Origin: Runella aurantiaca
Lineage (GTDB): Bacteria > Bacteroidota > Bacteroidia > Cytophagales > Spirosomataceae
Assembly (NCBI RefSeq): GCF_003339505.1
Contig: NZ_QPIW01000003.1
Span: 184,471 to 248,470, forward strand
Length of the DNA: 64,000 nucleotides
Direction: 5' to 3'
Shown here: one piece after another, positions 28,222-34,186 of the stretch
Numbering within the stretch: the first letter of the stretch is position 1
Layout: each line of letters opens with the position of its first letter
Position numbers and translations under genes: made by a program
The notes under the pieces: generated by a model
Databases searched by the model: none
Told to the model about the DNA's origin: nothing
The model's input: the letters and a program-made list of their open reading frames with translations, nothing else

Positions 28222-29103
28222 TTAAAAATCCCCGTAATTCACCTGCAAACACGGCAAACCCAGCTCCAAGCGCCACAAATCCACGACTTGGTTGCGGTCG
28301 TCGAGCACAAATTGCACGAAATATTGCCCTTTTACGTGCGCTTCGTAAAGCTCTTTTTTGACAACAGCATCTTTGCGCATATCTCCCGTCGTACGCATAT
28401 AGAGCGCGTGATAAGGGATATTGTTGTATTTCAGCCAATTGAGCGTCGGCGTCCGCGCTTTCTCTTCTCGACCCGACATCAAAATAATTTTGACACCCAA
28501 AGTGTAATAATTTTTGATGATTTCGGCAATGGGTTGGTTGAGATCATCCAATTCGCACGACATGGTATCGTAAGGGCTTCGGTTTCTCAAAATAGCCAAC
28601 GTGCCGTCCAAATCACACAGGATAGCAGGCGGCAAAGTTGGGTCTTGGGGCTGATAATGCGGCCCGCGCTCATCGCCCAACACGTGGGTTTTGTACATAC
28701 GTAAAATCACGTCGCGGCCTACTTTTTTCTCCCGTACTTCATCCCGTGCTAAGCTTTCTTCCAATGAAGTGTTCATTTCCCGAACCTCTATCTGCACCTG
28801 TTCTCCCGTTTCTTTGCAGTATTTCTGCACCACCTGACGAATGCGCTCCACTGGGCGGTCTGATAAATTTGTATCATCAATGATGACGTGTTTTCCATCG
28901 CGCAGAGCTTCCACTAACATCAAATCACGGACTCGCTCTACAAACTTTTCGTTGTGTTTTGAATGTTCGCTGTTGTCGAGCATGGCGCGGAGTTCGTCTT
29001 TGTTCAGCCGTTTGTACATGCCCTTGTTCTCGTCCAACAGTTGTCGGGCGAGAGTCGATTTTCCGCTGGCGGGCAGTCCCCGCAGTAAGATTACTTTTTT
29101 CAT
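28222..29103 (-). CDS. polynucleotide 5'-kinase/3'-phosphatase, T4 Pnkp-like (N-terminal P-loop kinase + C-terminal HAD/DxDGT phosphatase)
   Basis: Walker A 'LLRGLPASGKSTLA' at the N-terminus. C-terminal 'ILCDLDGTLA ... LMSGR ... RKD ... LDDRNQVV' gives HAD motifs I-IV. Domain order matches phage T4 polynucleotide kinase. Confidence 0.8.
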   Translation of the reverse strand: MKKVILLRGLPASGKSTLARQLLDENKGMYKRLNKDELRAMLDNSEHSKHNEKFVERVRDLMLVEALRDGKHVIIDDTNLSDRPVERIRQVVQKYCKETGEQVQIEVREMNTSLEESLARDEVREKKVGRDVILRMYKTHVLGDERGPHYQPQDPTLPPAILCDLDGTLAILRNRSPYDTMSCELDDLNQPIAEIIKNYYTLGVKIILMSGREEKARTPTLNWLKYNNIPYHALYMRTTGDMRKDAVVKKELYEAHVKGQYFVQFVLDDRNQVVDLWRLELGLPCLQVNYGDF

Positions 29104-29106
29104 TTT

Positions 29107-30177
29107 TTATACATCATAATTGGCAAACGGCTTCTGAAATACGGGGCGCAGTTGCTTCCAAATCACGTCGTCATAGGGCTTTTGGTCAAACATTTTGAAC
29201 AAAACCGCTGGGTAACGACAGGTTTGAAAATACAGCGCAGTGTCTTTACGCGTTTCTAAAATTTTGAAATCAGCCTTACAGATCGCTTCAATTTCCGCAA
29301 ATTGCGCCAAAAGTTGCGCGTGGGTTTCCTTGACCCACTCATAAAATTCATCGGGTACTTTTTCCAGAATCGGCGTTAAATCCTGTCCTGCTTTCAAATA
29401 CTCCCAAATGCTGACGGTTGAAACGCCCGTCACAATTCGGTGGACGCGCTGGTATTCTTCAAACTTCACTTTCAAACGATATCCACTTTGAAAACGCACC
29501 ACAAATCCTTCTTTGTTTTCTTCCTCCAGCGTTTTCAGCAACTGTAAATCGTTCAGGCCGTCGTAGCGTTTGACGATTTCAAAACCGCCTTCTTTTAGAA
29601 ATGCATGATGTTGCGTTTCTAAAACATCAATTCCCGTTTGGTTATCAATGACCGCCAAAAGAACCAATTTGCGTTCGGCTCCGTAATCCACCACAATGCG
29701 GTTTTCGGGATAAATGATTTCGAATAAATACGTCTTGGTCGGGTCTAAATTCGGAATAACGGGGGCGTATTGGGTATGCAACATGTCCGTAGCCATCAGC
29801 GCCTGCTCGCTCGAAAACGACCCGCGCGAAGCGATAAACGGCTTATTATCATACCAATACAAAATCCCTAATGAACCGTCAAGTTTCTCAAACACTTCAA
29901 AAGGCTCGTTGGGAATGACTTGGTTTTCCATTTCGCCCAAATTGAAAAACTTCCCAAAAGGGCGTGCCACGATGTTATATTCCTCATCTAAAATCAAGCC
30001 TCTGCACGCCAGCGTCAATTCATTCCAAACGCGGTCGTATTGGGTTTTGGGGGTATAGTTGTAGATGTACAACGGTGCCGTGGGGTGCTTTTGCACCTTG
30101 ATGTAATCATCGGCAATGAGTTGTTGTAAGGCTGCGATATTCATCGTTTTAGGTAGACTTGCCAAGTTTTTCAGCAT
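29107..30177 (-). CDS. ATP-dependent RNA ligase, T4 Rnl1 family
   Basis: Nucleotidyltransferase motif I 'KLDGSLG', motif IV 'EGFVVRF' and motif V 'YRLKVK'. Rnl1-like segments 'CRGLIL', 'RPFGKFFNL' and 'SRGSFSSEQALMA' (compare T4 Rnl1 'CRGIMF', 'RPMEKFFNL', 'SKGSIKSEQALMA'). Its stop lies 3 nt before the Pnkp start. Confidence 0.8.
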   Translation of the reverse strand: MLKNLASLPKTMNIAALQQLIADDYIKVQKHPTAPLYIYNYTPKTQYDRVWNELTLACRGLILDEEYNIVARPFGKFFNLGEMENQVIPNEPFEVFEKLDGSLGILYWYDNKPFIASRGSFSSEQALMATDMLHTQYAPVIPNLDPTKTYLFEIIYPENRIVVDYGAERKLVLLAVIDNQTGIDVLETQHHAFLKEGGFEIVKRYDGLNDLQLLKTLEEENKEGFVVRFQSGYRLKVKFEEYQRVHRIVTGVSTVSIWEYLKAGQDLTPILEKVPDEFYEWVKETHAQLLAQFAEIEAICKADFKILETRKDTALYFQTCRYPAVLFKMFDQKPYDDVIWKQLRPVFQKPFANYDV

Positions 30178-30201
30178 ACCTGAGGTAAACTTGGCAAGTC
30201 T
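30155..30201 (-). promoter_or_regulatory. 14-bp perfect inverted repeat (agacttgccaagtt ... aacttggcaagtct) enclosing the annotated Rnl start codon
   Basis: Arms at 30155-30168 and 30188-30201. The ATG at 30175-30177 sits in the 19-nt loop. No T-run follows, so it is not a terminator. Confidence 0.5.
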
Positions 30202-30209
30202 TGTTGATT

Positions 30210-32611: not shown

Positions 32612-32880
32612 TCATCCAAGGCGGAAGGCGGCTTGAGCGGCGAGCGATGCAACGGTTTTTAAAACTTGAATTGTCATTTTGAAACAGACCCTTCCTATTT
32701 CATTGACAACAACCCTGACTCAAAAAAGCGGTGCAGGCATTGACTGCGGTATCTGCTGACTTTCAGGCTTTTTCTGAACTGTGCACGACGCTAAACGTCA
32801 CCGTCGTCACAGAAGTACTTTTTGCCATTGTAGCCCATGGTGACCGTTTTTTATGAAGTGGCCGTCTTCATCCTTCTGTT

Positions 32881-32932
32881 ACTCTACCGCTGAGTTACCC
32901 GAATTGCTTCGGGGGAGGAGTCGAACCCCCGA
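32881..32932 (-). other. tRNA-like element with permuted order (T-arm + 3' acceptor strand immediately followed by 5' acceptor strand + D-arm); no anticodon arm
   Basis: Minus strand reads GGGGG-TTCGACT-CCTCC (T-arm), CCCGAAG-C-A, ATTCGGG-TA-ACTC-AGCGGTA-GAGT-A (acceptor 5' strand + D-arm). No CCA and no G3:U70. Confidence 0.35.
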
Positions 32933-33154
32933 CCCACAGTGCATACATGAAGTCAAATAATCACGACTCAGACAGCATATCGCACGATACGTCGCCGATA
33001 CTACTTGGCCATTGATGAGACCAACGTCAGGTTCTGAGTACCAATGACTGACTTGACGATACAAATGTTAGCCCCAAGTGCGCACTCTTTTTGCGTAGAT
33101 GAAATTATTTTCGGAAATTTTGAAAAAATTACGCCCTCATACCGAAAATAACCC

Positions 33155-34186
33155 ATGCCCGTCAACCGCAATGCCCTGATTCGTTTTAAAACCATTGATG
33201 CCTGCCTGCGCAATCGCTACCGCAAATGGACGCTCGAAGACTTGATCGAAAAAGTCTCCGACGCTATGTACGAGTACGAAGGCATGGACAAAGGCATCAG
33301 TCGCCGCACCGTGCAGGCCGATATTCAGATGATGCGGAGTGATAAGCTGGGCTATTTTGCGCCGATTATTGTGGTTGACAAAAAATACTACACCTACGAA
33401 GACCCCAATTACAGCATTACTCAAATTCCGCTCACCGACCAAGACCTTACCCGGATGAACGAAGCGGTGGAGGTGTTACGGCAGTTCAAGGGTTTTTCGC
33501 ACTTTCAACAATTGAATTCGGTCATTCAAAAGCTCGAAGCTCACGTCTATGCCGCCAAGCACCACCAACGGGCCGTAATAGATTTTGAAAAAAACGAAAA
33601 CCTGCGCGGATTGTCGTATCTGGAAGTGCTGTATCAGGCGGTAGTCCAACAGAAAGCATTGGATATTACGTATCAATCGTTTCGAGCGCGGGAAGCGAGT
33701 CGATTCTTTTTTCACGTGTGGTGGCTCAAAGAATTCAAGAATAGGTGGTTTGCCGTGGGGGTAAAAAACGGTCAAAGTGATATTTTGCATTTGGCCTTGG
33801 ACAGAATGCTGGAAGCAACACTCAACGAGGAAGAGCAGTACCGTCCCAATGAGAAATATGTACCCGAAGCGTTTTACAAAAATGTGATCGGTGTAACCGT
33901 AAGTCCGACGCTACGGGCAAAAAAAGTAAAAATTTGGGTCAGTGCCGAACACGCCCCCTACGTCGAAACCAAGCCACTCCACCATTCGCAAAAGACCCTA
34001 GAATCCCTCCGCGACGGCATCATTATCGAGATCTGTGTTCAACACAATTTTGAACTGGAAAAAGAAATTCTGGGCTTTGGAGATGGCATGAAAGTGCTGA
34101 CGCCCGAACATCTGCGGAAACGCATCCAACAGCGGCTCAGCGCAGGGGCAAAGCAGTATGAAGAGATAGAGAAGGGTGAAGCTTAG
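33155..34186 (+). CDS. WYL-domain transcriptional regulator (N-terminal wHTH + WYL + C-terminal extension)
   Basis: N-terminus 'MPVNRNALIRFKTIDACLRNRYRKWTLEDLIEKVSDAMYEYEG' is typical of Bacteroidota WYL regulators. Central 'FFFHVWWLKEFKNRWFAVGV' is a WYL-like β-rich segment. Divergent from the SPFH/ATPase/Rnl/Pnkp cluster. Confidence 0.7.
   Translation: MPVNRNALIRFKTIDACLRNRYRKWTLEDLIEKVSDAMYEYEGMDKGISRRTVQADIQMMRSDKLGYFAPIIVVDKKYYTYEDPNYSITQIPLTDQDLTRMNEAVEVLRQFKGFSHFQQLNSVIQKLEAHVYAAKHHQRAVIDFEKNENLRGLSYLEVLYQAVVQQKALDITYQSFRAREASRFFFHVWWLKEFKNRWFAVGVKNGQSDILHLALDRMLEATLNEEEQYRPNEKYVPEAFYKNVIGVTVSPTLRAKKVKIWVSAEHAPYVETKPLHHSQKTLESLRDGIIIEICVQHNFELEKEILGFGDGMKVLTPEHLRKRIQQRLSAGAKQYEEIEKGEA

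Follow-up and report, generated by a model that had tools for sequence, protein, structure and literature searches.

Organisation of the locus

We analysed a 64,000-nt stretch of the genome of Runella aurantiaca (contig NZ_QPIW01000003.1, assembly GCF_003339505.1), referred to here as the window, to whose positions all coordinates refer. Its central locus codes for an RNA ligase of the T4 Rnl1 family, a polynucleotide kinase-phosphatase (Pnkp), a Band-7 protein, a WYL-domain regulator and an ATPase with a nuclease-like domain. We argue that it is probably an inducible RNA heal-and-seal operon into which a separate, self-contained gene of the PDC-S01 type has been inserted. A first-pass annotation had described the genes as a self-contained module of RNA cleavage and repair, or a new defence system. 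The five open reading frames (ORFs) on which that proposal was built were all found on the same strands and at the same positions, and Pfam hidden Markov model searches confirmed every domain assigned to them (Rnl1, Pnkp, AAA_14 with DUF4143, WYL and Band_7). The features of the locus are the following:

33155-34186, plus strand: winged helix-turn-helix (wHTH)-WYL-WCX transcription regulator, divergently transcribed (Pfam WYL and WCX)
32722-33058, minus strand: probable non-coding RNA (ncRNA) transcript of ~340 nt, with inferred ends
32873-32942, minus strand: YrlA-like, circularly permuted tRNA-like core of this RNA (Rfam match and covariation)
31451-32551, minus strand: soluble SPFH/Band-7 (slipin/stomatin-like) protein of 366 aa (Pfam Band_7)
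31369-31417, no strand: perfect AT-rich palindrome of 24+24 nt, ending 4 nt before the ATPase ATG
30210-31364, minus strand: AAA_14-DUF4143 ATPase with a PD-(D/E)xK nuclease-like domain (Pfam; PADLOC PDC-S01)
30156-30200, no strand: inverted repeat upstream of the ligase gene, GACTTGCCAAGTTT-N17-AAACTTGGCAAGTC
29107-30144, minus strand: Rnl1-family ATP-dependent RNA ligase, the sealing enzyme (Pfam RNA_lig_T4_1; phrog_562)
28222-29103, minus strand: T4-/Pnkp1-type bifunctional 5'-OH polynucleotide kinase and 3'-phosphatase, the healing enzyme (Pfam HAD_PNKP and AAA_33)
28172-28214, minus strand: terminator-like element at the end of the operon (perfect 12-bp hairpin, then a T-run)

The genes on either side (DHDPS, AraC, sulfatase and SASA) are ordinary chromosomal genes that are kept among Runella, and neither phage structural genes nor integration genes border it in the window or in the syntenic Runella locus L001 (loci used for comparison are denoted by L numbers).

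The RNA ligase and Pnkp

The ligase scored 79.9 bits (3e-22; cut-off 28.3) with Pfam RNA_lig_T4_1, matched the PHROGs family phrog_562 (T4 Rnl1 family) at 2e-71 and aligned with T4 Rnl1 itself (PDB 2c5u, 4e-16) over the nucleotidyltransferase domain. Its motifs I, IV and V (KLDGS, EGFVV and KVK) align with KEDGS, EGYVA and KIK of T4 Rnl1, and their cores KxDG, EGxV and KxK are invariant among 44 homologs. When an AlphaFold model of the protein (pLDDT 85) was compared with known structures using Foldseek, the top matches were two structures of T4 Rnl1 (5tt6 and 2c5u, E 2e-18, 369-377 aligned columns, near full length), the next best being fungal Trl1 ligase domains. The TM-score to T4 Rnl1 was only ~0.54, with a different orientation of the domains, and residues 243-331 were modelled as an all-helical C-terminal domain. 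With the NCBIfam equivalog model for T4 RnlA, TIGR02308, the ligase reached 80.5 bits, far under the cut-off of 242.25; judged from its sequence, it is a member of the family and not an ortholog of T4 RnlA. Translation most likely starts at 30144 (MNIAAL...), because the homologs are ~339 aa long.

Pnkp matched Pfam HAD_PNKP over residues 158-293 (4e-50, 170 bits, cut-off 27.6) and AAA_33 over residues 4-136 (3e-19), as well as the phage polynucleotide kinase family phrog_505 of PHROGs (2e-84). The closest solved relative is Pnkp1 (PDB 4xrp, 9e-57), followed by T4 Pnk (1ltq, 5e-39), both aligned over the full length, and the P-loop GxxGSGKST and the CDLDGT (DxDGT) motif are in register with both. 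These data support the view that the ligase and Pnkp are a predicted heal-and-seal RNA-repair pair. The names given to the two proteins in the first-pass annotation are therefore sound, that of a T4 Rnl1-family ligase by its Pfam score, motifs and Foldseek matches and that of a T4 Pnkp-like 5'-kinase/3'-phosphatase by the P-loop, DLDGT and the full-length alignments to Pnkp1 and T4 Pnk.

A probable tRNA-like RNA in the Band-7/WYL spacer

The 543-nt spacer between the Band-7 and WYL genes holds a structured ncRNA that had gone unmentioned in the first-pass annotation. Positions 32862-32953 of the minus strand match the Rfam family YrlA (RF02553) with 42.1 bits (E 7e-7), and the core is made of a closing stem, a T-arm (GGTTCGACTCC), a closed acceptor-like hairpin and a D-arm (CTCAGCGGTAGAG). 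When the core was aligned across seven Band-7-linked loci, 92.9% of the cells of its 19 pairs were paired, versus 43-55% in slid controls, and 11 of the 19 pairs showed compensatory changes. A covariance model built from this alignment, R1, matches the window once (80.7 bits). Each of the 11 Band-7 loci examined has an R1 match upstream of its Band-7 gene; three of them (L101, L102 and L103) were found by anchoring on Band-7. The positive loci include an RtcB-type operon (L102) and one with no ligase gene nearby (L103). R1 also matches beside TROVE genes, often in tandem, and had no match in the loci that carry the ATPase gene alone. The RNA has the tRNA-like module of YrlA, but it adjoins a Band-7 gene instead of the Rsr/Ro60 (TROVE) gene of that family; in sister strains a TROVE gene stands with the same RNA domain as in the window.

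Conserved blocks common to L001, L099 and the more distant L012 extend through the wider spacer. In an extended alignment of eight Band-7-linked loci analysed with RNAalifold, 22 of 38 pairs carried compensatory changes. In the ~340-nt RNA, two conserved 5' hairpins precede the tRNA-like core, and after it come another hairpin and a 3' stem with a T-run behind it. The minimum free energy fold of the whole spacer was no better than those of shuffled sequences (z = -0.85), so the case for structure is made by covariation and not by energy.

Outside Runella (L012, L065, L072, L074 and L075; columns ~239-330 of alignment A8), the R1 core is followed downstream by another T-arm (GCAGGTTCGATTCCTGC), by an additional D-arm-like element and by an anticodon-like hairpin. 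The full Band-7-linked RNA of these genomes looks like two fused tRNA-like modules, a predicted form that may correspond to the published 'b7a-tRNA' discussed below. In L001 a 209-aa ORF with a weak match to IS200-like Y1 transposases lies between the WYL gene and the ncRNA (5455-6115) and has REP-like palindromes (GACTTTCCAAGTTTTGAAAACTTGGAAAGTC) on both sides; it may be a RAYT/REP element.

The Band-7 protein, the WYL regulator and the conserved neighbourhood

The Band-7 protein matches Pfam Band_7 in two stretches (3.9e-33), and its residues 131-345 match stomatin structures (E 2e-15). No transmembrane segment was predicted in it (maximum KD19 1.42). Its gene most likely starts at 32551, because the homologs are uniformly 366 aa long; translation from another ATG further upstream, at 32611, is improbable. 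The divergent regulator matches Pfam WYL (2.6e-10) and WCX (1.8e-14) and the PADLOC WYL model (1.7e-24), with weak similarity to the PafBC-type regulator 7p5x, and is presumed to be a damage-responsive controller of the operon. Iyer et al. cite Burroughs & Aravind 2016 and Makarova et al. 2014 for the recognition of cyclic nucleotides by WYL domains.

Gene neighbourhoods were counted over the assessable species-level ligase loci only (68 downstream and 61 upstream). In 61/68 loci a Pnkp gene is found no more than 5 kb downstream from the ligase, and in 17/68 the ligase is directly followed by RlaP, whose association with ligases is attributed elsewhere to Burroughs & Aravind 2016. Upstream of the ligase, a divergent WYL homolog was found in 35/61 loci, Band-7 in six of the 61 and TROVE/Ro60 in eight. 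A divergent WYL homolog also lies upstream of Band-7 in L101 and L102. The linkage of the Band-7 protein and the divergent WYL regulator to the repair pair, which the first-pass annotation had noted as upstream neighbours, is thus kept across genera.

Band-7 and Ro60 exchange places at otherwise similar loci. Among sister Runella whose ligases are 87-90% identical, L001 has Band-7, while L002 has TROVE, two YrlA-like domains and Pnkp-Hen1. In L002, L004 and L006 (ligases 89-90% identical), what precedes the ligase-Pnkp pair is not Band-7 but Ro60/TROVE with YrlA-like domains, of which L002 and L004 have two copies and L006 has three. L002 and L004 share the downstream flank of the window and carry Hen1 and/or a bacterial Pnkp upstream; in these loci two heal-and-seal systems stand side by side (L002, 74-8481). 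The window itself has no TROVE and no Hen1 homolog. Overall, the content of the site is patchy among Runella: Band-7, Ro60 with Pnkp-Hen1, a ParE toxin-antitoxin pair, a Fic-like gene, loss of the ligase (R. zeae) and lack of the whole cassette (L086) were all encountered.

Three further loci show other forms of this neighbourhood. In Runella zeae (L101, 6001-8039), the WYL gene, the tRNA-like RNA and Band-7 are followed immediately by a shortened Pnkp (253 aa) and there is no ligase gene; this operon looks as if it were decaying or remodelled. In a member of the Cyclobacteriaceae (L102, 7373-12059) the order is WYL (fused to PhyH), tRNA-like RNA, Band-7, RtcB, HEPN_Apea, RlaP and RlaP, which places a predicted HEPN RNase (HEPN_Apea) between RtcB and RlaP, inside a repair operon. 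In L065 (1780-4214), the stretch between the TROVE and Band-7 genes holds several YrlA-like domains and eight true tRNA genes (Lys-UUU, Thr, Trp, Gly, Ile, Met, Val and Arg-UCU), a tRNA array embedded in an RNA-repair locus.

The ATPase gene and its distribution

The ATPase matches Pfam AAA_14 (7e-29) and DUF4143 (2.5e-45), and the PADLOC model for PDC-S01 (PDLC04790) covers residues 1-352 with 322 bits (9.1e-97). Its Walker A and B motifs and residues D317 and E330-x-K332 are invariant among 43 homologs; in a structural model (pLDDT 92.9) the latter residues lie on beta2/beta3 of an alpha-beta-beta-beta-alpha-beta core. The earlier description of an AAA+ ATPase with a C-terminal D…ExK motif (DUF4143) is therefore accurate. 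The fold is an AAA+/STAND-like module joined to a PD-(D/E)xK domain, a nuclease fold that usually acts on DNA, whereas PrrC has a dedicated anticodon-nuclease domain. PADLOC returned no PrrC match for the protein, and it is not an ABC-type ATPase fused to a C-terminal anticodon nuclease, so the analogy with PrrC drawn in the first-pass annotation fails on the fold. PDC-S01 comprises single-gene ATPase and PD-(D/E)xK candidates obtained from 'guilt-by-embedding' (Payne et al. 2024), a family known for embedding inside other systems; it is a catalogued defence candidate, validation being reported as pending for most PDCs. PDC-S01 is reported to be the fourth most common defence call in prokaryotes.

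We surveyed 80 species-level ligase loci for the ATPase using tblastn and phmmer, and found it in one, L015 (Arcicella), where it lies between the ligase and RlaP genes and not, as in the window, between Band-7 and the ligase. Beyond that, the three genes co-occurred only in Runella strains that are near-identical (L099) and within a single Arcicella lineage. Conservation of the ATPase-Rnl-Pnkp neighbourhood was the check proposed for the cleavage-and-repair module, which was to be given up if the three genes never co-occur in relatives; one locus in 80, with the gene in a different position, is essentially that outcome. In the syntenic Runella locus L001, WYL, Band_7, ligase and Pnkp follow one another in this order between the same flanks, with no ATPase gene. 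When the two loci are aligned, the ATPase gene together with the sequence upstream of it (~1.24 kb) takes the place of a 143-nt spacer of L001 that holds a terminator-like hairpin. Homologs of the ATPase were found in the following contexts (amino acid identity, locus, context):

96%, L099: arrangement like that of the window
85%, L086 (Runella relative): DHDPS - ParE toxin-antitoxin - ATPase - sulfatase, at the same chromosomal site and without repair genes
70%, L087: Arcicella arrangement
65-67%, L089, L090 and L100: among peptidase, asparaginase, aminotransferase and dehydratase genes
54% or less, L091-L098: without repair genes

A metagenome scan with the ATPase gave only eight loci, all at 54% identity or below, and adds little on close relatives. 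In L087 (2463-4786; Arcicella type) the WYL gene is split in two fragments and is separated from the ligase by an AbiEii-like toxin gene with its partner gene.

The composition of the gene also sets it apart, its GC content at third codon positions (GC3) being 40% versus 52-57% in all neighbours. In addition, palindromes with the half-site TTATG(T/C)AAAT precede its homologs in every context. In 9 of 13 loci their arms are perfect over 12-27 nt, whereas shuffled sequences gave at most 9-13 nt, and the palindromes end 0-9 nt before the ATPase ATG (window 31369-31417; L015 ~5232-5275; just upstream of 6001 in L087, L089, L090, L095 and L096). The palindrome belongs to the inserted ATPase unit, perhaps as an operator or promoter, and we speculate that it could be an operator bound by the winged-helix region of the ATPase itself. 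Distant members have different palindromes, namely AAATTGTCAATT in L094 and TTACTCAA..TTGAGTAA before a second copy in L096, which suggests a co-varying operator or recognition site upstream of ATPases of the PDC-S01 type. Rfam 'microRNA' matches at 31355-31428 were dismissed as artefacts of the AT-rich palindrome.

The comparison of loci indicates that the ATPase gene is an autonomous insertion and not a conserved member of the operon, because it is absent from L001 and from 79 of the 80 ligase loci, stands alone in L086, occurs in unrelated contexts, deviates in GC3, travels with a palindrome and matches PDC-S01. We rejected vertical inheritance of the ATPase with the operon, since its position differs, most loci of Runella, Arcicella and Emticicia lack it, and its GC3 is deviant. 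The proposal of a self-contained cleavage-and-repair module or new defence system cannot be upheld for this locus, the ATPase not being part of the conserved system; on sequence grounds it is most likely an independent candidate anti-phage or selfish gene.

Inverted repeats and terminators

The terminator-like hairpin after the Pnkp gene reads GAACCGTATAAG-11 nt-CTTATACGGTTC-TTTTATTT. It was missed by a consensus promoter/terminator scan, which allowed only loops of up to 8 nt; the scan found fewer sites than in shuffled sequences and was not used for conclusions on promoters. A 14-bp inverted repeat (30156-30200) precedes the ligase ATG by 11 nt, and its arms do not differ among four Runella loci (the window; L001, 7946-7988; L006, 2480-2522; L099, 8166-8208). 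Its 17-nt loop is reverse-complemented between the loci with the ATPase (window and L099) and those without it (L001 and L006), and in L002 the same arms enclose a different loop. The orientation of the loop in the window creates a spurious upstream ATG at 30177. The repeat could be a small hairpin inversion or switch, and is a candidate operator or RNA hairpin. Its assignment to a REP family found no support, as it occurs once in the window and, among the loci compared, elsewhere only upstream of Runella ligases. The WYL and DHDPS genes converge on a further 12-nt inverted repeat (TTAACCGCAAAG ... CTTTGCGGTTAA) at 34196-34285, which probably terminates transcription in both directions.

Proposed function and alternative explanations

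We propose that the conserved system consists of the WYL regulator, the ~340-nt ncRNA, the soluble Band-7 protein, the Rnl1-family ligase and the T4/Pnkp1-type Pnkp. Ribotoxins, for instance anticodon nucleases, would damage tRNA or other RNAs of translation, leaving 5'-OH ends and 2',3'-cyclic-phosphate (or 3'-phosphate) ends. Pnkp would turn these damaged ends into 3'-OH and 5'-phosphate ends, as suggested by its intact catalytic motifs and its homology to active enzymes. By the same reasoning from motifs and homology, the ligase would be adenylylated on the lysine of KLDGS and would seal the break via lysyl-AMP. The Band-7 protein and the tRNA-like RNA could act as a ribonucleoprotein (RNP) scaffold or cofactor in place of the Ro60 and YrlA of rsr-yrlA-rtcBA; this role is proposed because the two strictly co-occur and because sister Runella strains have Ro60/YrlA, in place of Band-7, next to a ligase that is 90% identical. 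More speculatively, the WYL regulator might turn the operon on upon a damage signal, by analogy with RtcR, and damaged RNA ends might be what it senses. The ATPase gene would have come with its own palindrome, taking the place of the spacer with a terminator that lay between the Band-7 and ligase genes.

Several points weigh against this interpretation. All the enzymatic and RNP roles at the locus are predicted, and the wider Band-7/tRNA-like-RNA class is one without experimental validation (bioRxiv 10.1101/312249). The ncRNA lies under the Rfam gathering score for YrlA (42.1 against 69 bits); its ends were placed at a conserved TTTG...TATCGTCAAGT block and at a T-run (32722-32727), and these ends and its expression are thus putative. 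With respect to the ATPase, its closest relatives (Runella, 85-100% identical, and Arcicella, 70-72%) both adjoin the ligase, and the Arcicella gene overlaps the start of the downstream RlaP gene (ATGA). The insertion in the window also removed the terminator seen in L001, and the ATPase is therefore likely to be co-transcribed with the repair genes. Because of the adjoining ligases, the RlaP overlap, the lost terminator and the HEPN_Apea nuclease in the L102 operon, we leave a slim chance for a real functional coupling of the ATPase with the repair genes.

The alternative that holds up best, though we consider it unlikely, is that the cassette serves housekeeping RNA processing or quality control, e.g. 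of endogenous tRNA/rRNA fragments under stress, and not conflict, the ATPase still being an unrelated insertion. The ordinary conserved Runella genes on both flanks would suit such a role, and Ro60/Y RNA has been tied to the decay of structured RNA with PNPase. The patchy content of the site, variable among Runella strains, speaks against it, and the toxin-antitoxin, AbiEii and HEPN neighbours fit a conflict island.

It appears very unlikely that the ATPase-nuclease is a PrrC-like toxin serving programmed RNA cleavage within an integrated module of cleavage and repair, or of abortive infection, and paired there with an Rnl and a Pnkp of its own. The gene does lie inside the operon, co-directional with the others and with no GC-rich terminator before or after it; its 71%-identical Arcicella relative is embedded in the corresponding operon and overlaps the start of RlaP; and nucleases do occur in such operons, as the HEPN_Apea of L102 illustrates, with PrrC in EcoprrI as a precedent for embedding. 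But the ATPase is missing from nearly all of the ligase loci, including the syntenic one of Runella, it occupies different positions in the two lineages that have it, and it is found alone at the same chromosomal site in L086. Its 65-67% homologs lie in housekeeping contexts, it has a conserved upstream palindrome and a deviant GC3 of its own, and its fold is not of the PrrC type.

It is even harder to credit that PDC-S01-type ATPases of this clade have repeatedly been captured beside the Rnl1 ligase through coupling to RNA repair. In such a scheme the STAND-like ATPase might, for example, sense infection and free the nuclease, and the co-transcribed heal-and-seal enzymes would limit or reverse the collateral RNA damage. 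The position of the ATPase next to the ligase in Runella and Arcicella is what would favour it. If it were true, ATPase and repair enzymes together would make a reversible 'damage and repair' immunity module.

Finally, that the ligase and Pnkp are a T4-like prophage or phage remnant and not a host system is barely conceivable: despite the strong matches to phrog_562 (2e-71) and phrog_505 (2e-84) and the 2233 phage records with a ligase homolog, the best phage identity is only ~40%, against 60-96% in bacterial chromosomal orthologs (559 related stretches were confirmed by a genome scan), the flanks of the locus hold no structural or integration genes of phages, and the partners (WYL, Band-7 or Ro60, RlaP) are cellular.

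The reading of the locus as a heal-and-seal operon with an inserted PDC-S01-type gene makes it useful in several respects. It would be a clean example, in the culturable Runella aurantiaca, of the Band-7/tRNA-like-RNA repair class, and the exchange of Band-7 and Ro60 beside a 90%-identical ligase in sister strains offers a ready comparison of the functional equivalence of the two RNPs. The covariation-supported RNA model could seed an Rfam family, and the upstream palindrome gives a concrete handle on the regulation or mobility of PDC-S01 genes.

Comparison with known systems

The first-pass annotation knew of no described system with this composition. A Band-7/tRNA-like-RNA/RNA-ligase arrangement had already been predicted computationally, as relayed from Burroughs & Aravind (NAR 2016) in the preprint of Wang et al. 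(bioRxiv 10.1101/312249). According to that account, RtcB in some bacteria adjoins a Band-7 protein and a predicted tRNA-like RNA named 'b7a-tRNA', YrlA occasionally occurs beside Band-7, and Rsr/YrlA occasionally beside other ligase families. The window agrees with this definition as given second-hand, having Band-7, a tRNA-like ncRNA and an RNA ligase in one neighbourhood. The locus belongs to this predicted modular RNA-repair class, with a core of Rnl1-type ligase and Pnkp and a WYL regulator, and is not a new cleave-and-repair system.

Like the Band-7 systems of Burroughs & Aravind, as they are cited in that preprint, the window encodes an SPFH/Band-7 protein beside an RNA ligase and a tRNA-like ncRNA. 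It differs from them, as far as that account describes them, in that its ligase is ATP-dependent and Rnl1-type with a separate Pnkp, instead of RtcB, and in that its RNA core is of the permuted YrlA type. L102 has the canonical Band-7-RtcB-RlaP layout, together with a WYL regulator and the same RNA as the window.

The rsr-yrlA-rtcBA operon of Salmonella is controlled by RtcR and induced by damaged tRNAs (Hughes et al. 2020, PMC7790460). The window resembles it in having a divergent regulator, a tRNA-mimicking Y-like RNA, an RNA-binding scaffold protein (a predicted role in the window), an RNA ligase and an end-modifying enzyme. It differs in having Band-7 in place of Ro60, WYL in place of the CARF/sigma-54 regulator RtcR, and Rnl1 with Pnkp in place of RtcB with RtcA.

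With the Pnkp and Rnl1 pathway of phage T4, the window shares the same two enzyme families, intact catalytic motifs and adjacent genes, whereas its locus is chromosomal, regulated and, as proposed here, RNP-associated. The Pnkp1-Rnl-Hen1 system of Capnocytophaga gingivalis (Wang et al. 2015, PMC4411300; 4xrp) is likewise a chromosomal heal-and-seal system of the Bacteroidota and provides the closest solved relative of Pnkp, but it includes Hen1, which the window lacks.

As for the ATPase, PDC-S01 genes of PADLOC and the gene in the window are alike in being single genes embedded within another multi-gene system, although here the host system is an RNA-repair operon and not a recognised defence system. 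PrrC in EcoprrI is also a nuclease-ATPase gene embedded in another system, and is conceptually opposed to Rnl1/Pnkp repair; it carries an ABC ATPase, unlike the window protein with its AAA+/STAND-like module and PD-(D/E)xK domain.

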